A stretch of DNA of 64,000 nucleotides from an uncultured Gemmataceae bacterium (GTDB lineage: Bacteria > Planctomycetota > Planctomycetia > Gemmatales > Gemmataceae): the NCBI GenBank assembly GCA_963750165.1, contig CAVVPN010000011.1:2144001-2208000 (forward strand), given 5' to 3'. The position numbers and the translations under genes are program-made. Shown here one piece after another: positions 1 to 15,451 of the stretch. Below the pieces are notes generated by a model. The model saw only the letters and a program-made list of their open reading frames with translations, was not told where the DNA came from and did no database searches. Position 1 is the first letter of the stretch; every line of letters starts with the position of its first letter.

Positions 1-703
1 GCGACTGGAAGTGCTTACGCAACCCCCCGAAGCCGAGCGCGGACACCTGACGGACAAGCTGCAAGGAGAACTCGTCCTGACCAACACCGCCTTCTGGGAA
101 AACTACCTGCACATGCTGCGTTGCATCGCTGAGGAAGACCCGCAGAACTGGGCCGCGCTGTGGGAAGGGGTTCCCGAGGCGCAGGGGGTGCCACTCGAAA
201 AAGTCATTGCCCACTACCGCAGCTGCTTCGACCCGAGCAAGTTGACGGCGGAAATTGAGAATCTGGAGGCCGAGCACACGGCTCTATACCGCCGCTACGC
301 CGACCTACCGACCCCACGGGCCAGGGAGAAGGCGAAGGCGGAGCTAACCACCCTGGAGGACCGAATCGCCGAACTGGAGCGCCGGCGTGAGGACATCGGC
401 GCGACTGCGACCGCCCAGTGGGCACAGGTTCTGGACTTGGCGAACGCGGTCAAGGAAGCCCGGAGGGCGATGGAGAGCGAGGACGGCGAGCGTGCTTCAC
501 GGCGGAAGGCGGAAGCCCTCCGGGCCATCATCCAGCGGATCGAGTGTACCTTTGAGCCGACGGACCAGAGAGGCGGCGGCCACGGCAAGAAGAACGCACG
601 GTTTGCCAAGGTGACGATCTATCCGATTGTGGGCGATGCCGCTCACTTTCGCATCGAAGCCGATAGCGTATTACGGGCAACCCGGGCCACGTCCCACATG
701 TAA
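1..703 (+). CDS. C-terminal part of a large serine recombinase (5' end outside window)
   Basis: Coiled coil followed by KAEALRAIIQRIECTF, paralleling QATVLREVVTKVEVRF in the recombinase at 13153-14923. The last ~20 codons overlap the TPR gene antisense. Catalytic domain not visible. Confidence 0.65.
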   Translation, partial: RLEVLTQPPEAERGHLTDKLQGELVLTNTAFWENYLHMLRCIAEEDPQNWAALWEGVPEAQGVPLEKVIAHYRSCFDPSKLTAEIENLEAEHTALYRRYADLPTPRAREKAKAELTTLEDRIAELERRREDIGATATAQWAQVLDLANAVKEARRAMESEDGERASRRKAEALRAIIQRIECTFEPTDQRGGGHGKKNARFAKVTIYPIVGDAAHFRIEADSVLRATRATSHM

Positions 704-1497
704 TGATTTATGCGGTGCTCCGCCGCCCGGCTCAGGTGCTCCAGCGCCTTCGCCGCGTCGCCGTTGGCCTCGTGGTACAGGCCGAGGTACAGCTGGGCGT
801 AGAACCGCTGGCTATTGCGCAGCGCCGCGTCCGCTTTGCCGGCCTCCGCCGCCTTGAGCACAGCCGCCGGCTGTGCCTTACCCTGGAACAGCGCGTATAC
901 CTCCATCATCGGCACACGCCGATCCTGGCCGATCTTCAGCAGGGCCGCCCGCGCCTTTTCGACGCCGACCGTCTTCGCCATGCACAGGTAGCGCCAGACG
1001 GCGTTCTCCACGTCGTTCGTGTCCACGCTCTCGTAGCCCTCGAACTGCTTGCGACCGTCCTCGAAGCGGCCCGCGTAGTAATAGGAGATGCCGCGCATCC
1101 AGTGGCCCTTCGCCTCGTCGGGCCGCAGGGCGACGAATTTGTCAAAGTCCTGGATGGATTCCGGGATGTGGCCGAGCTTGAAGTGGACGGCGCCGCGGCG
1201 GTTCCAGAACTGGGCCGCCTTCGGCTCCAGCGTCACCACCTGGGTGAAGTCCGCCAGCGCCCCCTTGAACTGGTCCTGCTCCTCACGGATGAGGCCGCGC
1301 AGGGCATAGGCGCCCGCCTCCTTCGGGTGCTCCTTGACGGCCAACTCGGCGAGACGCAGGGCCTCGTCTTTCTTGCCCGCGTCCTGGGCGGCGCGGGCGG
1401 CCTTGAACAGCTCCTCCAGACTCTTGCCCGACTCTTGCCGGGCGGAGGCGGCCACCATTCCGAGACTCACGGCGACAATCAGGAGCAACCGGCGCAT
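643..1497 (-). CDS. Secreted TPR-repeat protein (NlpI-like)
   Basis: Signal peptide MRRLLLIVAVSLG, several TPR units (AYALRG…, FWNRRG…, HWMRGISYYYAG), and NDVENAVW and YAQLYLGLY motifs. Confidence 0.85.
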   Translation of the reverse strand: MRRLLLIVAVSLGMVAASARQESGKSLEELFKAARAAQDAGKKDEALRLAELAVKEHPKEAGAYALRGLIREEQDQFKGALADFTQVVTLEPKAAQFWNRRGAVHFKLGHIPESIQDFDKFVALRPDEAKGHWMRGISYYYAGRFEDGRKQFEGYESVDTNDVENAVWRYLCMAKTVGVEKARAALLKIGQDRRVPMMEVYALFQGKAQPAAVLKAAEAGKADAALRNSQRFYAQLYLGLYHEANGDAAKALEHLSRAAEHRINHYMWDVARVARNTLSASMRK

Positions 1498-2901: not shown

Positions 2902-3163
2902 TCACGAGCCGACGGCCCGCTCGAAGCAAAACGCGAGCAGCAGTTCATACTCGCGCCGCTGCACGCGCCGGCACAGGTCATGGCACGGCGCCGCCTCCTC
3001 ATAGGACGCCTCGCACAAATCCACAAACGCCAGTGCATCCCAGGCCGCCTGCCGCACCAGGAACGCGGCCGGCGGCGGCGCGTCCGCCGCGAGTTGTGCC
3101 GCCTCCGTCCGCAGCGGCTCGAACACTGGATGCTTGCCGACGCGCCGGAACCAGTATTTGCTG
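2902..3163 (-). pseudogene. 3' half of a conserved hypothetical gene interrupted by the integrated element
   Basis: Encodes (N)SKYWFRRVGKHPVF…WDALAFVDLCE…EYELLLAFC, which continues …HRREPDFW from 15146-14848 in frame (561 nt total). Confidence 0.9.
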
Positions 3164-3685
3164 TTCCCCGAATGAACAAGCGGGGTACGCCGTTCAAGTG
3201 CCCCTCGCCCTTGCCTAGAATAGTGATTGCCCCCTTGGCCGACGCTGCCGTTTCCATCGCCCACGTCGCGTTCTGCCGCGTCCGGGCGGGGGAACTCGGC
3301 CCCGGATACGGCGGGCGGCACGGGCGGTTCCTGGGGCAAAGCGGTAAGATAGAGGCAGCGGGACGCCGGGCCTCATGAACCCGGCCGGCCCTGCCTGGCG
3401 TCGTGGCCGTCTCCTGGACGCGGCAACTGGGCAGGGCACCTCCCGCATTCCAGGAGACAATGACATGTCCGACACACCCACCGCGGCCAGCGCCTGTGCC
3501 CGCGTTCCCTCGCTGAATGGCACGCCGAACTGACGTTCAAGCGCGAAACACTGGTTGCGAACATCAAGGCCGCGGATTCCGGTCTGCGCGGCGGGAGGGG
3601 CAACCAGGGGATACAACTCGACACCTTCCAGAAGTGCGTTGCCTGGCTCGCATGGCCGACGCAAGGGGGCATTGTTGATCGTTAT

Positions 3686-4213
3686 ATGCTCCCCCGGTTG
3701 CGGGATACGCTACTGCAATTGTGCATGGAACACAACCTCGACCTGCCCTCTTGGCACGGCGAACCGCAAGACGACATGACCGCCCTGCAAATGGTCAACG
3801 GTTGCCTGGCAGCAATCGAGCGCGCTATTGGACGCACGCAGCCCGACACGTCCGTTGCAGTGAAGGCGGTATCGACCGCCAGCGAGCAACCACGCAAGTT
3901 ACTCACTGGCTGGCTGGAGATCGCCGCCGCCCTGGATATGAAATACGCGGACTGCGACAAGATCAAGAGCCTGAACAAACGATTTGAGGGGCCTATTGGT
4001 AACAGCGGCAAGGGCACAAGCCCGATGGTCTACCGCGATGTCCTCATCCAGTGGTGGAATCGGCTGGCAATCCAGGAAGAGGAACTGGCCAACCAGCGCG
4101 AGGGTGCCAGGCTCACCGCGGAAGCCCAACACTCCTACGGCAAGAGCGGCACGGCGGCCCCGGAAATCAACGGCGAAGTGAAGAAACGGCGTAGCGACCG
4201 GAAACCTACCTAA
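3686..4213 (+). CDS. Putative DNA-binding regulator (C-terminal HTH-like)
   Basis: LTGWLEIAAAL…PMVYRDVLIQWW resembles excisionase/MerR-like HTH. The frame is open back to ~3464 and an RBS/ATG sits at 3465 in another frame, so the gene may be longer with a frameshift. Confidence 0.5.
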   Translation: MLPRLRDTLLQLCMEHNLDLPSWHGEPQDDMTALQMVNGCLAAIERAIGRTQPDTSVAVKAVSTASEQPRKLLTGWLEIAAALDMKYADCDKIKSLNKRFEGPIGNSGKGTSPMVYRDVLIQWWNRLAIQEEELANQREGARLTAEAQHSYGKSGTAAPEINGEVKKRRSDRKPT

Positions 4214-4237
4214 ACCTCCCGGAACCTGCTAAAACCT
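4203..4237 (+). promoter_or_regulatory. Four AACCT direct repeats at exact 10-bp period
   Basis: AACCT starts at 4203, 4213, 4223 and 4233, upstream of the 4284 operon. Confidence 0.6.
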
Positions 4238-4283
4238 CTCTGTGCCGCGATCCTCCCCATGAATTTGTGAGGAGGACGCGGCT

Positions 4284-4475
4284 ATGTTTCTTTCCCCCGA
4301 AGAACTCGACAGGCGCATGGGGTGGAGGCCCGGCCGGGCCGAGCAACTGGCCCGCCAGCGACGACTGCCCTATATGTTGCTCCCAGATGGATCAATTCGG
4401 TTCGACTGGACCGAGATTGAACCGCTCATTGTTCGCATACCGGCTGTCCTCAATTTAGAGAGGGGGACGCCGTGA
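4284..4475 (+). CDS. Small excisionase-like HTH protein
   Basis: 63 aa, GAGGAGG RBS, LSPEEL…LARQRRLPYMLLPDGSIRFD pattern of HTH_17/Xis proteins. Confidence 0.7.
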   Translation: MFLSPEELDRRMGWRPGRAEQLARQRRLPYMLLPDGSIRFDWTEIEPLIVRIPAVLNLERGTP

Positions 4476-4747
4476 ATGAACCCCTCGACTCGCTGCACGT
4501 CCCGCCGATCCCCCTGCTGCCCGTGGCGGTGGTGGAGGACACCACTGCCCGACCCGGCAACCTCACGACTGCGCTGGCGTCGCTGGTCCTGAGCCGAGCG
4601 CGCGAGCACTCTGCGCCACGGCGAGCGGGCCGAGCCGGTAGGCGAGGCCGACGACCGCTGAAGCAAATAACGGCCGCAGCGTCGGGGCGGGTACGCCACG
4701 GCCGTCCTAACACACTACCCGCATTCTACCCCAGAAAGGGGTGCCGT

Positions 4748-4978
4748 ATGAAGTTGCGTAGCAAAAACGGAGACAGATCGCGCCTGCCTTTTGGCCGCTA
4801 CAGAGGACTTCCACTTTCCAAGGTGCCGCGGGAATACCTGATGTGGGTGTTACGGGCGGTCAAGTTGTCCGAGGATCTGCGTGTCGCCGTGTCCGAGGCT
4901 TTGGCATGTCGGGATATGTTCCCGCCCCTGCCGCCCGATACCCGTGTCGTGAGGGAGGGCCGGCACCATGCCATCTAG
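4748..4978 (+). CDS. Small DUF3820-like protein
   Basis: LPFGRYRGLPLSKVPREYLMW motif. The frame is also open from 4472. Confidence 0.65.
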   Translation: MKLRSKNGDRSRLPFGRYRGLPLSKVPREYLMWVLRAVKLSEDLRVAVSEALACRDMFPPLPPDTRVVREGRHHAI

Positions 4979-7082
4979 CCCACACACCGCCACCGTCAAG
5001 GCGGCAGCGCGTCTCCGTAGTCTTGGATTCGGTATCTGCCGAATACTGGCCAAGGAGAAAACCCCGAACTACAAGGGCTGGACGCGGGCCAGTTTGGAGG
5101 ATGGCGACTTCGAGCAGTTCCGCTGCGCGAACATTGGCATCCTCGGCGGTGCCATCAGCGGCAACCTCGTCATCGTGGACCCCGACCGGCCCGATGTCCG
5201 AGCGGAGGCCGTCAAGCGTCTGCCACGTACCATGACGGACGGGCGACCGTCGAGTGGTCCGGGGCACCTCTACTACCGCGTTACTGACGTTCCGGCGTGG
5301 GCGACCGCCGGCACCCAGGTTGCGGGTGGCATCGGCGGGCCAAGGATTTTTCACTTCGCCGATGGCAATGGACTTCCGATAGGACTGGACTTCCTGGGGA
5401 CGGGCGCGAAGGCGGTTTGCCCGCCGTCTCTCCACCATTCCGGCGAGCGCCGTTGCTGGTTTGTCGAGCCAGAACACATCGTCACCCTTCCCTACCTCGA
5501 CCTGTGGGCCTTCGTCAAGCAGCTTGCAAAGGACTTCGGTGCCGCCAACGCCGACCGGGAATGTGCGCGTCCAACTGTTGCCGTGACAGGCGAGCGGCGG
5601 ATTTTTTGCGACGCAGTAGGGACGCACATCGTCAAGCGTGCCATCGCCTACCTGGCGGCATGTCCGCCGGCCATCAGTGGGCAAGGTGGGCACAATTGCA
5701 CGTTTGCGGTCGCGAGGGCCATCGTGTGGGGCTTCGACCTCGGTGCCGATGCCGGTTTCGATTTGTTGCAACAGTTCTACAACCCGCGCTGCGATCCACC
5801 GTGGTCTGATGCCGAATTGATGCACAAGTGCGAGGACGCCAACTGCACAAAGTTCGATAAGCCTCGGGGGTACTTGCTGGACGCGCCGTCTCAAGTGTTG
5901 AGTGTTGATTCAACAGGTCAACAGGACGGGGCGTTGCAAGGTCCGGGCGACGACACGTTGGACTGCCCAGAACTGGCCCGCGACCCGAGTCCGCTGCTGA
6001 CCATCGGCAACGACCTCGCTGCCATCGGCATCGTTGACGAATCGGACAGCGCGAAGCTCGTTTACCTAGCCTACACCTCTCGGGTGCTGGAAGACCCAGC
6101 AGCAATCGTAGCTCGCGGCGTCAGGGGGACCGGCAAGTCAGTCCTGCTGACAAAGACGGCGACGCTGTTTCCCCCCGAGGTCAAGATTGAGGCGATGCAG
6201 ATGACCAACGCGGCGTGGTTCAACACGCCGGATGATTTCTTCAAGCACAAGGTCTTCATCAGCGGCGAGCGCAAGCACTCAACGACCGAAGAAGCGAAGG
6301 ACGCCGGCGCTTGCCTCCGGCAACTCCTGAGCGAGAAGCGAGTCAACCGCGGCGTGTCCGTCTACGACAAGGAGTCGAAAGCCTGGTCAACGGTATGGGT
6401 CGAGAAGGCCGGCCCGGTTGCCTATGCGGAGAGTACCACTGCCCGGTCAATCTTCGAGGAAGACCTTGACCGGATGCTTCAGATCTACACTGACAACTCG
6501 GAGGAGCATAAGAGGAACGTCCTGGACGCTATTGGTAGCAAGTACGAACCCGACTGTGTGCGGCCAGACCTCGATGCCATCATCAAACGGCACCATACCT
6601 TCCAGCTTTGGTTGCAGAAGTTCGCGCCTATCCGTGTTGGGGTTCCCTACCACCGGGCGGTTACGTTGATGCTTCCCGTAGACGGGGCAAGCGTGTTTCG
6701 CACGACACAACTACTCTTCACGATCATTCAGACGGTTGCTCTGCTTCACCGTCAGCAGCGCGAAGAGAGGAATGGTTATCTCATCGCAACCCTGGATGAC
6801 TACGCCGTTGCTCGACAACTACTGATACCACCACTGAGCACGGCTATCGGTATTGGCGAGTGGCACGGAGGCGCGGAGAAACTGAGGAAGGTGACGAAGC
6901 CGGGCGAGGAGTTCACGACGCCGCAGGTGAAACAGGCTCTTGGATTCGGGCACGACATGGGGCCAAGCAGGCTCCTCAACGGTCTGGTCGAAGCCGGCAT
7001 GATCGTGCGAACGCGAGAGCAGAGCGGGCGGACACCAGCTACGTACAAATGGGTAGATGGCGCGCTGCGCGGTTGCTGGTGA
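4968..7082 (+). CDS. Bifunctional primase/polymerase fused to a P-loop ATPase/helicase-like domain
   Basis: NIGIL…IVDPD, GHLYYR and CPPSLH prim-pol motifs; AISGQGGHN…NPRCDPPWS primase C-terminal motif; Walker A GVRGTGKS. Confidence 0.88.
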   Translation: MPSSPHTATVKAAARLRSLGFGICRILAKEKTPNYKGWTRASLEDGDFEQFRCANIGILGGAISGNLVIVDPDRPDVRAEAVKRLPRTMTDGRPSSGPGHLYYRVTDVPAWATAGTQVAGGIGGPRIFHFADGNGLPIGLDFLGTGAKAVCPPSLHHSGERRCWFVEPEHIVTLPYLDLWAFVKQLAKDFGAANADRECARPTVAVTGERRIFCDAVGTHIVKRAIAYLAACPPAISGQGGHNCTFAVARAIVWGFDLGADAGFDLLQQFYNPRCDPPWSDAELMHKCEDANCTKFDKPRGYLLDAPSQVLSVDSTGQQDGALQGPGDDTLDCPELARDPSPLLTIGNDLAAIGIVDESDSAKLVYLAYTSRVLEDPAAIVARGVRGTGKSVLLTKTATLFPPEVKIEAMQMTNAAWFNTPDDFFKHKVFISGERKHSTTEEAKDAGACLRQLLSEKRVNRGVSVYDKESKAWSTVWVEKAGPVAYAESTTARSIFEEDLDRMLQIYTDNSEEHKRNVLDAIGSKYEPDCVRPDLDAIIKRHHTFQLWLQKFAPIRVGVPYHRAVTLMLPVDGASVFRTTQLLFTIIQTVALLHRQQREERNGYLIATLDDYAVARQLLIPPLSTAIGIGEWHGGAEKLRKVTKPGEEFTTPQVKQALGFGHDMGPSRLLNGLVEAGMIVRTREQSGRTPATYKWVDGALRGCW

Positions 7083-7130
7083 TACCGACGGTTGAGGAAG
7101 TGGAAATGGCCGAGGCTGAGCTGCGATCAA

Positions 7131-7311
7131 CCTAACAGCCTAACTTAGCTAACAAGGGGTGCCTTTGCCTAACTAACTAACAGGGGGTATATACCCCTGG
7201 CACATGAGGGATGAGTTACCTAACAACCTAACTTGTCAAACAACCTAACAAGATCACTGGTGACGTTCTCCCTGAAGGGGATGGGGTATGTCCCCCTTGT
7301 TAGTTAGTTAG
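7131..7311. repeat. AT-enriched CTAAC repeat region with a 29-bp inverted repeat, candidate replication origin
   Basis: About 9 CTAAC on + and 3 on -. 7169-7197 and 7283-7311 are near-perfect inverted copies. Lies directly after the prim-pol gene. Confidence 0.7.
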
Positions 7312-7820
7312 ACAATTCGCTCCGGAGGACTACCACCGGGCACCGCGACGGTTGCGCGAGTTGATGGGGCAATGCTCATGCAACCTTGCTGGCCTGTTGA
7401 GGAAGTAACCGTAACACCCTGACCTGGGCCGGGCGGTCAGAGACGAGTACCTTAAAGCAACAACGAAAAGGGGCGGACTGGCCCCCATGCCCCAACCGCT
7501 TTCCCGCCGGGAGCGGCGGTATGGTATCCTAACTGGTGCTGGAAACCGATTGACGTTGTGAGAATGACAGCAAGGTAGCTCGCCGGTCAGGTCATGCCAG
7601 CGTCCAGGACGACCAATCCCGGACGCCAAGAGTGCAAGACTTTCCAGCAATCTTGCGGATTGAAGGCGTGAAACCAACCGTGCGTAGGGAGCCGCGCGAA
7701 GGAACTAGCCCCCGGTGCGCCCGAGGGGGGTCACAATACGCGGGAACATGCCGGGGGGAGAGTGGAACGCCCCCTACCCTGCGGTCAGGGCACGAGGACG
7801 GCCAGCTCGTCGTCGCCAAG

Positions 7821-9649
7821 TTACTTGCTGGGCGAGAAAACCAACACCTCCACGGTATTCAGGAAGGGCACGGTGCCTCCTCCGCCGATGGCATAGATGC
7901 GACCATCGCGACCTGTAGTCGCCGCCAGTTGACCACGCACGGTAGGCATGTTTGCGACGGGAGTCCACTTGTTGGTGCTCGGGTCGTAGGCTTCCACAGG
8001 GTTGAGATTTTCGCCTTCGGGATGTCCTCGAATGGCGTAGATTCGGCCATCCGGACCCATTGCGGCTGCAAGCGCATTACGCGCTGTTGGCATGTTGGCA
8101 ACGGTAGTCCAAGTGTTAGTTTCGGTGTCATAGGCTTCCACAGTTTTGAGACGCTTGCTGTTGATCCCGCCGATAGCAAAGATGCGACCATCCGGCCCCG
8201 TTGCGGCTGCGAGGTAGACACGGACTGTGGGCATACTTGCGACAGTAGTCCAGGTGTTTGTGCTCGGGTCGTAGGCTTCCACGGTATTAAGAGGCACCCC
8301 GCGTTGACCAGTTCCGCCAATGGCGTAGATTCGACCATCGGGGCCGGTGACGGCTGCCAGCCCATGACGCGCGGTCGGCATGGGGGCGACCGCGATCCAC
8401 ATGTTGGTACTTGGGTTGTAGGCTTCTACGATATTCGCGCCGCCAACGCCACCGATGGCATAGATGAGATTATTCGGACCTAATGTGGCGGCCAGGTGAT
8501 TGCGAGCGGTGGGCATGGGGGCCGCTTTGGTCCACTTGTTGGTATTTGGGTAGTAAACCTCGACGGTGTCGAGGCGGCCGCTGGCGTCCTCTCCGCCGAA
8601 GGCGTAGATGCGACCATCCGCCCCCGTTACCGCAGCCAGCAAGATACGCGCGGTAGGCATGTTGGCCAGACTTTTCCAGGTGGCCGGCTGAATTCCTTCA
8701 GTTTTTTTATCAAGGATGTTTTTTATCGATTCCTTGCCCGGCGCAATCTTGTCCGTTCCCACAGCGGGCTTGTCCTTCTTCCTGTCCGGGTCAGTGTCCT
8801 TCGGCCTGTCGTCGCCGCGCGGACCCTTCGCGGCCACCGGGGGGCCGTCCGGCGTCTTCGGCTCCGACCTATTGCGGACGACGAGGACGACCACGACCAC
8901 CAGCGCGACGGCCGCGGCGCCCCCGCCAGCCAGACCCATCCCGGTACGCCCGGACGCGACGGCCGGCGCCTCTCCAGGATCGGCTCCTCTTCGGGGGGAA
9001 GGGGCACGGAGAGGATCGTGCCCCGGGGAGGCGGTGGAATCTGGATGCGCTGCCCGCACTTGGGGCAGTTTAGTTTCTGGCCTGCAATCCGAGCGGGCAC
9101 CGTCATCGCGGTCTTGCACACCGGACACGCGAAACGAATCGGAGTCGCCCCCGATGCTCGCGGCCCCGCCGGCATCGGCGACAGCGGTCTGTCGGCGACC
9201 GGCGGCGAGTTCAATTCGCCCGGCTAGAAGCGCGGCAGGTCGGGCGGCAAAAACGGCAGCAGATTCTCGGCGCTGCTCAAGCGCAGGTCGGGCGGCACGG
9301 TTCGGCCTTCGGGGTCGGTCGGCCGGTACAGGGTATGGCGAACCTGGACCTGCACCTGGATCAAGTAGGTAGTCAACTTCCGCTTGACCGCGGCAGGCTG
9401 TCCGGCGGCCTCATCCTGGATGGCGGCCTGCACCGCTGCCTCGACCCGCTCCGCCGTGGCATGGGCCAGCGCCTGGAGTTCTTCGCGCGGGTCCGCTTCA
9501 GCCGGATTCTGCTTCTTCCACCGCTCCCAGACATCGGCACCGAACTCAACAACCTCGATCAGCGCACCGCCACCGGGTACGAGAGCGACGAGGAATTTGC
9601 CGATGCGGTTGACGGCAGCCTCGACACAACAATTCAGCAGGGGGAACAT
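7821..9649 (-). pseudogene. Multi-domain membrane protein: helical N-domain, Zn ribbon, TM, six Kelch repeats; broken by an in-frame TAG (9224-9226) and a frameshift near 8925
   Basis: …LPRF*PGELNSPP continues in frame to CPVC…CPKC. A shift in a G run leads to TM AAAVALVVVVVLVV and repeated GPDGRIYAIGG…VEAYDP…W…MPT Kelch units. Confidence 0.75.
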
Positions 9650-9762
9650 GGGTCACTCCGCGCAGGCTCGAGGGCGCGTTCTCCGTGATCCGAGGAAGTA
9701 GGTGCCTCACGAGGTACACACCGATTGAAAGCTGCGGATGGCGCATAGGCCGCTAAGTTGCC

Positions 9763-10869
9763 TCAAGATGACGCTGCTGCTGGTTTGTGGCGATAGCGCC
9801 GACGCCATGCGTAGCCGATCATTCCCACCGCACCGATGCCGAGAAGGGTTAGTGAAGAGGGTTCAGGGGTGGCGGCTGCGAACTGGTATTCAAAGGCTTG
9901 TGTTTGACCGTTGGTGTCGATGTAGTATCCGACGGCTGTGCTGCCGTCTATCGCCGCCAACCCGGTGGTGCCTGTCGTGCCGGGGTAGTCGAGGGTGATG
10001 TAGGTTGAACCATCGTAGATAAAGCCATGCGTTCCGGTCGCATCCTGGAAAGAGCCAACCACATCGTTGCCGGATACAGCGGCCGGCTGGGTCGAAGCTG
10101 CGCCGGGAACGCTGATTGTGGAGTAAGTCGAGCCGTTGTACGAAAACCCTTGGAAGTTGCCGCTGCTGTCTTTGTAGTAGCCAACTACTGTGCTCCCTGA
10201 AATGCCATTGGCTTCGGTATAGTTCGATCCGGGGAAATTGAGAACGCTATAGGACGAGCCATCGTAAAGAAAGCCGTGAATGTCACCTAACGCGCCGCTG
10301 CCGGCGTCGCTCACGAATCCCACGACCTTGTTGCCAGAGATTGCGGTCGCAATCGTATCAAACTCCCCTGGGACGGCGAGCGTCGTGAATGCCCCTGAAT
10401 TGTAAATAAATCCGCTGTATTGGCCAGTGCCAGGTTGAGAATTGCCGATAATGTTGTTGCCGGAGATGCCGGTAGTTTCGGTGTAGGTCGCACCCGGTAC
10501 GTCGATGGCGGTATAGGTCGATCCGTTTATTGTGTAGAGAAATCCGTGGAAGTTAAGGCTGGCGTCCTCGTAAATACCGACGATGTTGTTACCGGAGACG
10601 CCCCGCAGGGTCGTACCTGGGATTTGCGTTTGGTTTGGGAGTGTCACTGAGCCAGGGTAATTGATCGTCGTGTAGGTCGAGCCGTTGTACAAGAATCCTT
10701 GCGTAGTGCTACCGTTGGAATAATAGCCGACCACGTTGTTGCCAGAGACGGATGTCGCTTGCGAACTGACCGATCCCGGTGGATTGATTTGGATGAAACC
10801 AGCAGATGCCTCGGTGGCTTGCAAAAGAAGCGCGAAGGCCATAGCAAAGGCGAAAGGTGTATCTTTCAT
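9763..10869 (-). CDS. PEP-CTERM surface protein with beta repeats
   Basis: Signal peptide, repeats of GISGxxVVG…HGFLYDGSTY…VPG, C-terminal TPEPSSLTLLGIGAVGMIGYAWRRR. Alternative TTG start at 10902. Confidence 0.9.
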   Translation of the reverse strand: MKDTPFAFAMAFALLLQATEASAGFIQINPPGSVSSQATSVSGNNVVGYYSNGSTTQGFLYNGSTYTTINYPGSVTLPNQTQIPGTTLRGVSGNNIVGIYEDASLNFHGFLYTINGSTYTAIDVPGATYTETTGISGNNIIGNSQPGTGQYSGFIYNSGAFTTLAVPGEFDTIATAISGNKVVGFVSDAGSGALGDIHGFLYDGSSYSVLNFPGSNYTEANGISGSTVVGYYKDSSGNFQGFSYNGSTYSTISVPGAASTQPAAVSGNDVVGSFQDATGTHGFIYDGSTYITLDYPGTTGTTGLAAIDGSTAVGYYIDTNGQTQAFEYQFAAATPEPSSLTLLGIGAVGMIGYAWRRRYRHKPAAASS

Positions 10870-11252
10870 GGTGCTACCAAAAAAGTAGGAGCGACGAACC
10901 AAAGCCGCTCCTCAAACCCGACCAAGGGTGCTACAGAACGGACCCTGGCCGCCGCCCCTTTCGGGGCGTGGCTTGGTCCGCTTCTGTAGCTTCAAGAGCG
11001 TTTCCGCTCAGGTTGGTCGTTTGAAGAAGCGAAGCCATGCTCAACGCATGGTTCAAATTGTCAACGGGCCTTGTCTGGCCCGGTCAATGCTCTGGCACTC
11101 TCCGTCGTCCGAGGATGCATGAACAGCAGTTGGCCCAGCGCCAACCGCACCACCTGGGAGTCTACACGAGGCGCGCGACCGACGCTAGATGCCTGAACGG
11201 GAATTTGCGAATCGACAAGCGGCCGGGGTGGGCAGCCCCGACCGATGCCGTC

Positions 11253-11567
11253 TTACGCGACCGATGCCCCCGCGACCTCCGCGAACGCCAGGACGCGGCG
11301 AATGCGGTTGGCGGGTACGTCGTTGACGCTGTACCACAGCCCTTTCCTCGACCGCCGCAACCAGCGCCGCGGCACGTTCAACTCCAGGACCACCACCTGC
11401 TCGACTCGACCGCCGTGGCGCTTGACCGTGTGCAGGGTTGCCCAGCTGGACTTGTTCAGCGAGTGCAGCCATACCACCTTGAGCCTACCCTTGCTCTTGC
11501 AACAGAGCAAGCCGCCCTTCAGGATGCTGGCCAGATTGCGGGCGAGCGTTGCGTGGCGAATCTTCAT
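11253..11567 (-). CDS. Minimal Tpt1/KptA-like ADP-ribosyltransferase-fold protein
   Basis: RHAT…NLASILKGGL…VWLH…RHG…VVLELNV…VPANRI follows the Tpt1 NAD-binding lobe pattern. Confidence 0.65.
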   Translation of the reverse strand: MKIRHATLARNLASILKGGLLCCKSKGRLKVVWLHSLNKSSWATLHTVKRHGGRVEQVVVLELNVPRRWLRRSRKGLWYSVNDVPANRIRRVLAFAEVAGASVA

Positions 11568-11630
11568 GGCCGGTGCCCTCCTGTAGCAAGCGGGGCGGGG
11601 TTGTGGTCCCCCGCCCCGTGGTTGCGTTGG

Positions 11631-11943
11631 TTAGAGATTTCCGGCCGCCTGCAACGCCGCGAGTCCCGAGGCGTGCTTGCAGTGTTTCCACTTCAAGAAC
11701 CCCTTGCACTCGCAACTGTGCCCGTCCGCAGTTCAGGTTGACGTGGTACTCGTCCTCGCTTCCCACCTTCGACACTCGGAAACCGCTGCCGAAGTCGCTG
11801 GCCACCTTCGCCACAAGGTAGCGGTCGAGTTTGCCGTTCTGGCGAATCTCAACCACCCCTGACGAACCCGGCTCGCTTCCGATGGGCAGGGCCAGCTTGA
11901 TCGTCCGTTGACGCGCCTTGCGGGTTTTCGTTACCGTAGCCAT
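11631..11943 (-). CDS. SWIM zinc-finger protein (one frameshift near 11730)
   Basis: After YHVNLN the shifted frame reads DGHSCECKGFLKWKHCKHASGLAALQAAGNL* (CxC…CxH). Confidence 0.75.
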
Positions 11944-12138
11944 TGCGATTCCTCTTCTTCAGGAATTGCCACGGGCCGGGGTGTTACAAGCACCGCCGGC
12001 CCACTTTCGTTTCGGACCCGTTTGCCTCCTCTCCGTTTGGCGTGGCGGGAACCAGTCCCCCGCGCCCGTGTCCCGCTCTCCCTCCCGGTTCCCCGGTTCC
12101 GAGCGGCATCTTGTCAAAGAACTGGGCTTGATTGCCTG

Positions 12139-12537
12139 TTACTGCTTCTTCTTGCCGCCCTTAGCCGCCGGCTTGCGCGTCAGGCCCAGCGCCTCCAACT
12201 CGTCGTCGCTGAACGCCGCCAACTTGGCGGCGACCGCCTCCTTGGTGACCGGTGCCGCCTTGGTGCCGGTGCTGGCGCTGTAGCCGTCGAGCTGGGCGGC
12301 TCTGCTGATGGCGGGGTCGTATCCGATGGCCAGGATCCACCCCTTCACCTCACCCTTAATCGCGATCTCGAACGCGCGAGTGTTCTTGGGCGGGTTGGCG
12401 GGTTTGGCTGCCAGCGCCTCGTCGCGCGTGGCAAACAGCTGCTTGGGCAGCTCATCCCGAGTGGTGGCGGTGGTCTCGGGGGCCGTGGCCTGGTCCGTTG
12501 CCGTTGTGTTCGTGGTCGTGTTCGTCGTGTCGGTCAT
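12139..12537 (-). CDS. Hypothetical protein, first gene of the leftward operon
   Basis: 132 aa, RBS, coding-like codon usage, Thr-rich N-terminus and basic C-terminus. Confidence 0.7.
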   Translation of the reverse strand: MTDTTNTTTNTTATDQATAPETTATTRDELPKQLFATRDEALAAKPANPPKNTRAFEIAIKGEVKGWILAIGYDPAISRAAQLDGYSASTGTKAAPVTKEAVAAKLAAFSDDELEALGLTRKPAAKGGKKKQ

Positions 12538-12617
12538 GGTCGTTCCCCTTTTCGTAAACCGTCGGGGCCGGGCCGGGCGGGAAACCCCCGCCCCGTTGCC
12601 CGCGCCCATCTACCCTA

Positions 12618-12722
12618 ATGATACCGAAACTTCGGTAGTGAGTCAAGTCCAGTAGTACCGAAAATTCGGTATTCCGCAACCCGAATACCGGACTTGAATT
12701 ACTACCGAAGTTTTGGTACAAT
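12618..12722. promoter_or_regulatory. Divergent sigma70 promoters with three palindromic operators
   Basis: TACCGAA-NN-TTYGGTA at 12622, 12656 and 12703. Left promoter TTGACT-17-TATCAT; right promoter TTGAAT-17-TACAAT. Confidence 0.85.
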
Positions 12723-12746
12723 GGGCGGCGAAAGGAGGGAAACCCC

Positions 12747-13001
12747 ATGACCACGTTCGGCGAGAAGTTGAGGGAACTACGGGACGCGGCCGGGATGACG
12801 CAGACGGCGCTGTCAGAGGCCGCGGGTGTACCCATCGGCACAGTGCGGGACTACGAGCAGGGGGTGCGCGACCCGCTGCTCTCTAACGCCCAGCGCCTGG
12901 CGAAGGCGCTGGGCGTCAGTCTCGACGTGTTCCCCCCGACGGTGCCGCGACCGAAGAAGGGGAGAGGTAAGGCGAGGGGCAAGAAGGGGGGTGGGAAATG
13001 A
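12747..13001 (+). CDS. XRE-family HTH repressor
   Basis: FGEKLRELRDAAGMTQTALSEAAGVPIGTVRDYEQGVRDP; GGAGG RBS. Confidence 0.92.
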   Translation: MTTFGEKLRELRDAAGMTQTALSEAAGVPIGTVRDYEQGVRDPLLSNAQRLAKALGVSLDVFPPTVPRPKKGRGKARGKKGGGK

Positions 13002-13156
13002 TTAGCGCGAAGGACGAGTTGCACCACCTGGCGGACTGCATGTCTGAGGAGGAGTGCGAGCGGGCATTTGAGCTACTGCGGCAGGCCGGGATGACCGGAC
13101 CCCAAGACGATGACGAGCCTGACGAGCCAACCACTGTGGATGAGGACAAGCAATGA
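12998..13156 (+). CDS. 52-aa acidic protein between repressor and recombinase (not in the ORF track)
   Basis: MISAKDELHHLADCMSEEECERAFELLRQAG…; ATGA start/stop overlaps with both neighbours. Confidence 0.6.
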   Translation: MISAKDELHHLADCMSEEECERAFELLRQAGMTGPQDDDEPDEPTTVDEDKQ

Positions 13157-14923
13157 GCACCACGAACGGCAACGGCAAGCTGGACCTCGACCGGGCTTGC
13201 CTCTACCTGCGCAGGTCCACCGATGACCAAGTGCAGTCCATCGACCGCCAGCGCGGCCAGACCACCGCCTACGCCGCCGCCAGGGGCTACCGCGTCATCC
13301 GGGAATACACCGATGAGGGGATCGCCGGCGACGTGTTCGACCGCCGCCCCGACTTCCAGGAGATGCTCGCCGCCGCCGGGCGGGGCGAGTTCGAGGTCAT
13401 CGTCGTCGATGAGCCATCTCGCCTGTCTCGGCAGAACCCCATTGATCTAATCGAGAAGGTCATCGCCCCCTTGCGGCGTTCGCGCGTCCGCATCGACACC
13501 GCCTCCAAGGGGGTGCTCGATTACGAGTCGCTGGCCGGCATTATCATGATGACGGTCCACGCCCACAAGTCGGAGGACGAGTCGCGCGACCTGTCCCGCC
13601 GCAGCCTGGGCGGCATCACACGGCGGGCGCAAGCCGGCCTCTGGTTCGGCTGGATACCGCCCTTCGGTCTGCGGATCGTCCGCGAGACGGACCCCGCCTC
13701 CGCCAAGGTGACGGCGCGAAAGTGCATCCACGGACCCGATGAGGAGGTGAACGCCGTCCGCTTCATCTTCGACGCCGTAGCCAACCGGGGCTGGTCGCTG
13801 CGGCAAGTGTGCCGTGAACTGGAGGCCCGCGGCGTCAAACCGCCCGCCGGCAACGGCCGCGGGGCGAACAAGGCCGGGGGCAGCTGGAACCCCGGCACCG
13901 TGCGGAAGATTCTCACCAACCGCAAGTACGTCGGCGACCTGACATACAACGTCACCCACCAGGGGAAGTATTCTTTCCTCTCCGGCGGTCGCGTCGAGGC
14001 GCACGGCGTCATCAACCGCCGTGTCAGCCGCAACCCCGATGAGGACATTGTTGTCGTGCCTGTCCCGGACCTCATCCTGCCGCTGATCGACCGCGACACC
14101 TTCACGCGCGCCGGCGTCGCCCTGTCCCTGGCGCAGAAGCGGACCACCCCCGGCACCGCCGCCCGCTACCTGTTCACTCACCTGCTTGTCTGCGGTGACT
14201 GCGGCTCGTTCATGCGCGGCCAGCCCGACCACGGCCACAAGGGGTACATCTGCTCCCGGTACAAGGAGTATGGCAAGTGCAGCCGCAACACCGTGGGTGA
14301 AGAACACCTCAAGCGGTCACTGCTGACGGCCCTGCTCGACGACATCCTCAACCCGAAGCGGCTCGACGAGGTAGAGGCGGAAGTGGAACGCCGTATCAAG
14401 TCGGAGCGCTGTTCCGGCGAGGCGGATCGTATCCGGCGCCAGGTCGCCGCCCTCGATAAGGACATCGCGCAGGGCAACATCAACCTCGCGCTTGCCCGAA
14501 GACCGTCACCCCGGCGTCATCAACCAGTTACGTCTGTGGGAGGGCGAGCGAGCCGGGCTGCTGTCCCGCCTGAACGACTTGGAGCACGGAGCCGAGCACG
14601 AAAAGGCGGTGCTGGCCGAAGCGCGCCGGCAGCTGTGGCGTCTGCGGGAGGCACTGGAGGGGGACGACGAGGAGGCGCAGGCGACCGTCTTGCGTGAGGT
14701 GGTCACGAAGGTTGAAGTCCGCTTCACCCACGAGCGGACCCACGGCAAGCGCAGCCCCACGGGCGAGGGCCGCGTCCTCAGCCGGGCGGCCGGGGCGGTG
14801 CTGTACGTTCGGCCCGGCCTTGGTTTATCCCACTTGTTTACTTCGGATTCCAGAAATCCGGCTCGCGGCGGTGCATCAGGCCGTGCCAGTAACTGCCGGT
14901 CGGCGTCGCGATGTCCTGGCTGA
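13153..14923 (+). CDS. Large serine recombinase/integrase (frameshift near 14490)
   Basis: YLRRST catalytic motif, DEPSRLSR, recombinase domain (ILTNRKYVG), Zn ribbon CGDCG…YIC, coiled coil. Adding GC at ~14490 gives NLARLPEDRHP and joins ORF 14492-14923. Confidence 0.95.
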
Positions 14924-15146
14924 GAGCGTGGCTTTCGTCCAGGAAATTGTGGTACAGCCACAGTCCCGCCAGGCAGCATCGGGCCATGTCGCGGTCGTGA
15001 ACGCGGTGCGGCGCCAGCAGCGCTTCTGGCGTCAGCGTCGCCAGGCGGCCGCGCATGGCTTCGTCCGGCTGTCCGGGGCCGAGCGGGCAGAGTTGTTCCG
15101 GCGTCAGCAGTTCGGTAAGCGCGGCGGGCAGTGGGATGTCGGGCAC
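14848..15146 (-). pseudogene. 5' half of the conserved hypothetical gene interrupted by the element
   Basis: CLAGLWLYHNFLDESHALSQ…SYWHGLMHRREPDFW, then an element-derived stop at 14838-14840. Confidence 0.9.
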
Positions 15147-15193
15147 GGCGGCATACCTTCGTCAGCGAGTCGTCAGGGGGGTCGGGGCCGGCG

Positions 15194-15451
15194 TCACACG
15201 AGCACTTCCTCGCGGTAGAACTCAAAGGCAGTGTTCCACGCCTCGTACTCCGACGGCAGCGGTTCCTGGGACACGAGCACATCGGGGCCGTCGGCCGTCT
15301 GGCGCAGGCCGCCTTTCCAGCCGCCGTCCGCCTTTTCGATGCGGATGAACGCCTCACGCAGATTGGGGCCGGTCAGCCGGTAGAGGTTGGGACCGACCTC
15401 CTCCGCCTTGCACTGCCGCTGCTTGAACCACGAGGGGAGCACCAGGGCCAT
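15194..15451 (-). CDS. Hypothetical protein
   Basis: 85-aa ORF with RBS and coding-like codon usage. Confidence 0.7.
   Translation of the reverse strand: MALVLPSWFKQRQCKAEEVGPNLYRLTGPNLREAFIRIEKADGGWKGGLRQTADGPDVLVSQEPLPSEYEAWNTAFEFYREEVLV

Follow-up and report, generated by a model that had tools for sequence, protein, structure and literature searches.

An 11.7-kb mobile element sits inside a conserved gene of an uncultured Gemmataceae bacterium and cuts it into two halves. The window that we analysed is a stretch of 64,000 nucleotides from this planctomycete (contig positions 2,144,001-2,208,000); all coordinates below are given in window numbering, and the source genome is called G000. 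We refer to the element as element A and to the interrupted gene, which codes for an unnamed protein, as gene X. We favour, at a probability of about 0.7, an explanation in which a small plasmid-like element driven by a large serine recombinase (LSR) entered an attachment site (attB) inside a dispensable gene X. Because its recombinase, LSR-A, is frameshifted, the element would most likely be stranded there, with gene X permanently off in this lineage. An earlier note, made from the DNA letters alone, had recognised the split and read it as an excisable on/off switch for the gene. Its description of the split agrees closely with what we find, and its idea of a switch is weighed below.

The split of gene X and the borders of element A

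The features that define the split are as follows.

2902 to 3162, minus strand: gene X 3' half, 86 codons plus stop, beginning SKYWFRRVG; E down to 3e-29 against relatives
3164 to 3167, plus strand: core TTCC at the junction far from the recombinase, with the likely crossover dinucleotide TT at 3164-3165
3164 to 14851, no strand assigned: element A, the inserted integrative element, 11,684 bp counting one core
14847 to 15146, minus strand: gene X 5' half, 100 codons, ending ...EPDFWN; E down to 1e-37 against relatives
14848 to 14851, plus strand: core TTCC at the recombinase-side junction, with the likely crossover dinucleotide TT at 14848-14849

The 5' half belongs to a minus-strand open reading frame (ORF) at 15146..14838, which opens with GTG at 15146 and reads ...HRREPDFWN. 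Its tail is GAT TTC TGG AAT CCG AAG TAA, that is, two element-encoded codons (P, K) and then TAA at 14838-14840. The 3' part reads GGG AAC AGC AAA TAC TGG at 3167..3150, i.e., N-SKYWFRRVGKHP..., and stays open down to its stop at 2902; at the junction it lacks a start codon of its own. This is the arrangement that the earlier note described, with minus-strand halves that end and begin at a shared GGAA, and its figures for the rejoined ORF (561 nt with the stop, 186 aa) agree with our count of 100 + 86 codons.

Whether the halves align to one full-length homolog was one of the checks that the earlier note had called for. We searched them separately, unjoined, against 41 genomes (G000 and 40 relatives). 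The 100-aa 5' piece found matches in 24 of the 41 genomes, with a best non-self E of 1e-37, and the 86-aa 3' piece likewise in 24 of 41, with a best non-self E of 3e-29. Half adjacency was then inspected at 15 distinct loci (L002-L012, L018-L021); the window's own halves (L001, L013) and places already sampled (L014-L017, L022-L024) were excluded. At 15/15 loci, both pieces match on the same strand at the same place, and one uninterrupted frame of ∼175-200 codons, counted from a plausible start, spans them. At 12 of these loci, the codon for residue 1 of the 3' piece comes immediately after that for residue 100 of the 5' piece; at the other three (L007, L019, L020), exactly three unaligned codons separate the pieces. 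Since the halves adjoin in one frame in all of these relatives, we regard the split as real, far beyond chance, and the claim that an LSR element divides a conserved gene stands.

The cut lies within the most conserved stretch of the family, YWHG-hMHRREPD-x-x-N followed by [SA]KYWFRRVG, and the invariant columns around it include H88, H92, R93, R94, E95, D97, N100, Y103, W104, F105, and G109. Recombination at the bases common to both junctions, in the TTCC core, would rebuild the gene X frame without gain or loss of a codon. The earlier note had likewise said that excision would restore the gene exactly, and against the intact homologs at 15/15 loci no residue would be gained or lost. A genome-wide search found no second intact copy of gene X in G000, and a circular or empty-site form of element A is present on none of the contigs of the assembly.

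We rebuilt the element's attachment site (attP) from both element ends and attB from both host flanks. The attP arms form a dyad about the central TT that pairs at 8/13 (16/26 positions), 10/15, and 13/20, including CTTGTT/AACAAG. At random places on the same contig, with the centre fixed, the mean is 5.5 of 20 pairs with a standard deviation of 2.1, which gives P(≥13) = 0.001 for attP. The best symmetry of attB falls at the same TT, with 12/20 pairs and P(≥12) = 0.0036. When half-sites are aligned, P and P' agree at 15/24 and B and B' at 13/24, while P vs B stays at background (6-8/24). According to PMC12286644, this geometry is what places the central dinucleotide of a serine integrase. As far as the bases can tell, then, the att geometry fits LSR sites, an imperfect dyad about a dinucleotide common to attP and attB. 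The earlier note had seen this LSR-type geometry from attP; the symmetry about TT and the CTTGTT/AACAAG pair are confirmed, and its count of 17 of 26 positions comes to 16 on recounting.

The recombinase and the contents of element A

LSR-A lies at one end of the element and is read in two frames.

13153 to 14493, plus strand: LSR-A, in-frame part, ∼447 aa, with Resolvase, Recombinase, and zinc-ribbon domains and the catalytic-serine motif RRSTDDQ
14492 to 14923, plus strand: LSR-A continued in the +1 frame through the TTCC core, with the coiled coil's second half and the C-terminus

The in-frame part matches PF00239 (6e-23, residues 16-163), PF07508 (3e-16), PF13408 (6e-12), and the integrase phrog_95 (3e-83), and RRSTDDQ occupies residues 20-26. 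The ORF itself, 13153..14697, encodes 514 aa, of which the last ∼67 residues are low-complexity and nonhomologous and end in a stop. LSR-A thus has the Resolvase, Recombinase, and zinc-ribbon domains but lacks an intact coiled coil and C-terminal part in one frame. Truncation of the coiled coil and loss of the C-terminus of a serine integrase should disable synapsis and its control, a view with which titles in the reference list of PMC12286644 agree.

Two kinds of evidence place the frameshift. At E ≤ 1e-20, relatives of LSR-A occur in 27/267 genomes of the order (G000 included), the best at 37-38% identity, with frames mostly of 577-648 aa. Long ORFs from 29 of these relatives' loci were compared with 13000-15400 by tblastn. 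Frame-1 alignments never extend past 14523 at these 29 loci, and eight homologs (L035, L036, L037, L038, L040, L041, L045, and L059) follow frame 1 to ∼14493 and then frame 2. The +1-frame alignments run from ∼14492 to 14726-14884, and several are contiguous in the query (457|458, 448|449, 522|523). Frame 2 reads ...LPEDRHPGVINQLRLWEGERAGLL..., a typical coiled-coil stretch. Codon composition agrees: third-position G+C in frame 1 is 0.88 up to 14490 and then 0.41, and in frame 2 beyond 14490 it is 0.84. The lesion corresponds to one extra or two missing bases near 14492-14494, where there is no long homopolymer, and no slippery motif is evident at about 14480-14500. A frameshift in the recombinase had been mentioned in the earlier note, and both the homologs' frames and the codon G+C locate it near 14492.

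As a check on assembly indels, we counted open frames in G000: 918 reach at least 800 aa, 49 reach at least 2500 aa, and the longest is 11,412 aa. Frames of such length would not survive if indel errors were frequent, so the frameshift is probably real and not an assembly indel. Very long open frames like those in G000 are typical of giant planctomycete genes. G000 also has a third LSR, on a 34.9-kb contig (C2:16378-17732), which is frameshifted near residue 108, a different place from LSR-A.

We also looked for LSR-A relatives beyond these genomes. Genome contigs gave 5 loci at no more than 27% identity, and metagenome contigs gave 18 loci at no more than 41% over short stretches; viral contigs held no LSR-A relative and no exact match to the 23-nucleotide (nt) element-end pattern.

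The other genes of element A are these.

3686 to 4213, plus strand: hypothetical protein, 175 aa, with a coding-like G+C signature; no family found (Pfam, PHROG, further profile scans)
4472 to 4978, plus strand: 168-aa protein with a short QSregVF_b-like stretch; counterpart in element B (below)
4968 to 7082, plus strand: replication protein, 704 aa, N-terminal primase-polymerase (PrimPol); PF09250 at 1.3e-9, phrog_1156 DNA primase at 4e-10
7821 to 9128, minus strand: Kelch-repeat beta-propeller cargo, 435 aa; PF01344 at 2e-69
9763 to 10902, minus strand: PEP-CTERM sorting-motif cargo, 379 aa; counterpart in element B
11099 to 12120, no strand assigned: 1-kb block with two small minus-strand ORFs (11253..11567, 11631..11943); 93% identity to element B
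12747 to 13001, plus strand: Xre/cI-type helix-turn-helix (HTH) regulator, directly upstream of the recombinase; PF01381 at 1.6e-16, PHROG transcriptional regulators

Over the cargo, around 10000-11000, G+C falls to 54-58%. Several small ORFs of the element matched no family in the profile scans, among them the two of the 1-kb block, which encode about 104 aa each. At least six further copies of the stretch at 11263-12123, with ∼70-74% identity, occur elsewhere in G000 (C11:223891, 780177, and 1576033; C12:90325 and 1316515; C9:127332), and this recurring block may be a mobile two-gene module.

Profile searches give a consistent picture of what kind of element this is. Among 16 element ORFs there was no capsid, portal, terminase, or tail PHROG, and the sole "virion structural" row was the Kelch-repeat match. 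A Pfam scan of 20 element ORFs and the two gene X halves found no relaxase, coupling protein, or type IV secretion component; relaxase and secretion families were likewise absent among the four element A ORFs in a second scan of 20 proteins. Given no phage structural, relaxase, or secretion genes in these scans, element A reads as an integrative element of plasmid-like character that carries cargo, and not as a prophage or a conjugative element. The defense-gene scan (PADLOC) returned generic HTH matches to the Xre protein only. No excisionase or recombination directionality factor (RDF) family was recognized among the element ORFs in profile searches, though such factors are too diverse to be excluded in this way. 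A 63-aa ORF of element A, positioned like the HTH_17 protein of element B, had no family match.

Gene X in other genomes and a related element next door

Gene X is widespread, and its family has no name. At E ≤ 1e-5, the family search gave 3861 hits. The best 120 have lengths of 175-206 aa, and the named entries among these 120 are all "hypothetical protein," several of them from Gemmataceae. Gene X has no Pfam or NCBIfam model. An AlphaFold prediction of the G009 homolog (32 sequences) is all-helical, with a pLDDT of 96.4 and a pTM of 0.92. Foldseek against the PDB gave no match at E ≤ 0.001, and a wide structure alignment (VIA-align) found TPR domains as its top match at Z 8.3, a score that the tool rates as no better than chance when proteins are helical. 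Atlas neighbors are unnamed clusters from Planctomycetota, Verrucomicrobiota, and Acidobacteriota. Our guess, from the predicted fold and a TPR neighbor, is that gene X may encode a helical-repeat scaffold. An invariant block of His, Arg, Glu, and Asp residues (H66, H73, H88, H92, R93, R94, E95, and D97) is seen in the family alignment (alignment A1; L003 1492-2052, P0005).

To see how far the split extends, we built a family profile (A1, 32 sequences) and ran it over 267 genomes of the order and 401 genomes sampled from the phylum, none of the comparison genomes being from the same genus as G000. With G000 counted, gene X was found in 208/267 genomes of the order (121 of the 145 of good quality) and in 82/401 of the phylum sample. 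Only G000 has distant halves, covering model positions 11-105 and 92-189; the same split occurs in 0/207 other order genomes and 0/81 other phylum-sample genomes that have gene X.

All 15 order genomes with at least two gene X matches besides G000 were inspected. The multiple matches reflect two full paralogs (G051, G162), a divergent middle (G021, G048, G169), or weak partial matches (G072); G149 has a full copy and a second copy, on a short contig, that ends ∼50 residues before the C-terminus. We considered the extra copies in G142, G229, G050, G153, and G208 as splits at the same site and rejected them, finding them 5'-truncated or decayed instead. At G142:C22 and G229:C23, the DNA remains homologous on the upstream side of the site, which means that neither copy is interrupted at that point. 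Local frameshifts, with overlapping matches in two frames, were seen at G152:C14:23940-24370 and G230:C485:10948-11470. G016:C705 carries a decayed orphan 3' gene X fragment with one in-frame TAG (L105 488-709), whose homology fades within ∼3 codons of the site used by element A; this 4.2-kb contig has no recombinase and no informative family.

The earlier note had also suggested surveying homologous recombinases for the same target gene. Searching the ±1.5-kb flanks of the LSR relatives in the order found a gene X half at 0/29 loci (best E values, 0.28 and 0.83), so none of these relatives flanks gene X. With the split found only in G000 and no LSR relative at gene X, element A reads as a one-off insertion, with a dispensable gene knocked out by it, and nothing in these comparisons points to domestication.

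Element A is not alone in this part of the genome. A blastn comparison with G000 gave a series of colinear blocks, 81-93% identical, immediately to the left of the window; they belong to a related element, element B.

−7670 to 696, no strand assigned: element B (G000:C11:2136331-2144696; L064 4331-12696), ∼8.4 kb, related LSR element; its right end is window 1..696 on the plus strand
643 to 1497, minus strand: host TPR-repeat gene, two genes downstream of gene X, with its last 11 codons replaced by element B

Element B lies 2.5 kb left of element A in the same small gene cluster and is bounded by a 13-bp direct repeat, GGGCCACGTCCCA, at −7670 and 684-696. It carries a weak HTH_17 protein (below the cutoff, E 0.008), counterparts of the QSregVF_b-like protein, the PEP-CTERM protein, and the pair of small ORFs of element A, an AAA_25/T5orf172 replication-type protein, and a recombinase, LSR-B. 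LSR-B is intact, with 706 aa and a stop at 701-703, and shares 34-38% identity with LSR-A; the right end of element B holds its C-terminal part. Its 13-bp core provides codons for a conserved W-D-V-A of the TPR protein, and when that protein is read without element B, its end matches the end of the homolog in G011, a genome in which the TPR gene comes directly after gene X. In tblastn searches with seven neighboring host proteins, only the TPR gene was found beside gene X, in 1/15 loci (G011); a tblastx synteny comparison gave uninformative noise. Taken together, elements A and B show that G000 has a family of such mobile elements.

In both elements, the recombinase frame crosses its own core. 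When integrated, LSR-A stops 23 codons into host DNA and LSR-B stops 2 codons beyond its core; in the circular form, LSR-A would stop 16 codons into the other element end, at 3216-3218. The recombinase tail in A and B is therefore host-encoded in the integrated state and encoded by the other element end in the circular state (14846-14923 and 3168-3218; 684-703).

Explanations and known systems

In the explanation that we favor, LSR dimers would have bound the imperfectly symmetric attP and attB sites and then brought them into synapsis. Both sites would have been cut at the central TT/AA dinucleotide, rotated, and religated, leaving hybrid sites at 3164 and 14848. We infer this strand-exchange chemistry from general LSR knowledge and from PMC12286644. 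Replication of the excised circle would fall to the PrimPol protein and its regulation to the Xre protein, with the Kelch and PEP-CTERM proteins as cargo. The insertion inactivates gene X, as a stop closes the 5' piece two foreign codons past the junction, the 3' piece is startless, and the genome has no second copy. The frameshift in the coiled coil of LSR-A would then leave the element stranded.

Several observations weigh against this account. The shifted C-terminal part of LSR-A is as conserved as the N-terminal part (31-39% vs 31-36% identity in the same homologs) and has no further stop, so the lesion either arose very recently, is an error of the assembly, or is bypassed during translation. 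The att sites show moderate symmetry: with 16-bp arms and nine neighboring centres allowed, attP scores 10/16, at P ∼ 0.045. In addition, no LSR-A relative exceeds 41% identity among the genome, metagenome, and viral contigs, so that mobility and target preference rest on a single copy.

The first of these points bears directly on the alternative that survives best, although we consider it unlikely, namely that element A is still an active, ordinary mobile element. Here the frameshift would be an assembly error or bypassed, and the element would excise with a directionality factor that we did not recognize, replicate by its PrimPol protein, and reintegrate, with no host-programmed role. The open and conserved frame 2 fits such activity, as do a replicase, a regulator, and two att arms that all look intact, and the sister element B has an intact LSR. 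Against it, the assembly contains very long uninterrupted frames, the frameshift site is not a long homopolymer, and there is no evident slippery motif at about 14480-14500. The LSR on C2 is frameshifted elsewhere, which fits decay of elements and not a programmed shift.

The reading of the earlier note is that element A has been domesticated as a regulated on/off switch, like skin in sigK or SPbeta in spsM, and would be excised under some condition to rebuild gene X. In its favor, excision would be exact, the insertion falls in the functional core of a conserved gene, and a second related element lies in a neighboring gene. We consider this reading very improbable. The recombinase is frameshifted, and the earlier note had named an inactivating frameshift as a finding that would refute the switch; as far as sequence can show, the recombinase has one. 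The insertion is unique among the genomes searched (0/207 other order genomes and 0/81 other phylum-sample genomes with gene X), and 0/29 loci of LSR relatives flank the gene. The element keeps its own replication gene, regulator, and cargo, as an ordinary mobile element would, and no directionality factor was recognized in the profile searches. We know of no terminal differentiation, like that of a mother cell or heterocyst, in this group. On all of these counts, the switch proposed in the earlier note gives way to a one-off insertion.

A further idea is a long shot, even more doubtful than a single domesticated switch. If the frameshift is an error or is bypassed, A and B could be two orthogonal, reversible LSR gates in one gene cluster, in which the state-dependent recombinase tail serves as a built-in directionality control. 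The title of a 2021 paper by Abe et al., cited in PMC12286644, names the extreme C-terminus of SprA, the LSR of SPbeta, as part of a directionality "toggle," and a tail that changes with the integration state could thus control directionality. If this were true, the pair would be the first reversible gene switch described in Planctomycetota. Finally, we discount almost entirely an assembly artefact in which a chimeric join placed unrelated DNA inside gene X, for which the sole point is that the assembly apparently has 12 contigs: a misjoin would not yield borders that match to the base with a common 4-bp core and symmetric att arms, a recombinase gene that ends at the border, and flanks that rejoin without loss of a codon.

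The main value of the finding is practical, in two candidate LSR/att pairs and a natural knockout of an unnamed conserved family. The insertion indicates that gene X is dispensable, which makes G000 the natural knockout, and the gene X family is a candidate for a new family definition. The elements also document LSR-driven integrative elements in Gemmataceae-type planctomycetes; we found no description of LSR elements or of gene-splitting cases in planctomycetes in the literature. Two candidate recombinase/att pairs are now defined with base-level sites, that of A (TT in TTCC) and that of B (13-bp core, intact LSR), and these are possible integration tools. To our knowledge, few such genetic tools exist for Planctomycetota.

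Element A adds no new principle, as gene-splitting LSR elements are well known, and the comparison with them is instructive. SPbeta in spsM of Bacillus subtilis is reported to use the SprA LSR and the SprB directionality factor (PMC4191935, PMC5499854). As in SPbeta/spsM, an LSR element lies inside a coding gene, precise recombination of attL with attR would rebuild the frame, and the recombinase gene is at one element end. However, SPbeta is a complete inducible phage in a spore-former, with developmentally triggered excision, whereas element A has no phage structural genes, no recognized directionality factor, a frameshifted LSR, an insertion that is not conserved, and a planctomycete host. 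The skin element in sigK is removed by the LSR SpoIVCA and has a counterpart in Clostridium difficile (PMC5025042). It is, like element A, a defective element that splits a gene, but skin is fixed in its species and excised in the mother cell under a directionality factor, while element A is in one genome among those searched. Judged from its sequence, element A thus fails two hallmarks of a switch, a working recombinase and a conserved insertion.

The gin element in gerE of Bacillus cereus ATCC 10987 is described in the abstract of PMC5595907 as giving rise to a sporulation-specific rearrangement. It resembles element A in being a gene-intervening element that is not a prophage, carries an LSR, and lies within a short coding sequence; element A is larger (11.7 kb) and has a replicase and cargo, and no evidence of rearrangement was found for it. 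XisF of the fdxN element of Anabaena (NF041201) has the same LSR architecture, with a weak match of 59.7 bits. We rejected LSR-A as an XisF equivalog at this score, which is far below the family cutoff of 375 bits. A further class comprises ordinary LSR integrative (mobilizable) elements that use a conserved coding sequence as attB. Element A differs from them in having no close relatives among the contigs searched, which leaves no basis for a target preference across a family, and in its phylum, which is unusual among described cases. It is like them in its insertion in a conserved motif, its replication or maintenance module with cargo, and its LSR at one end beside the att site.

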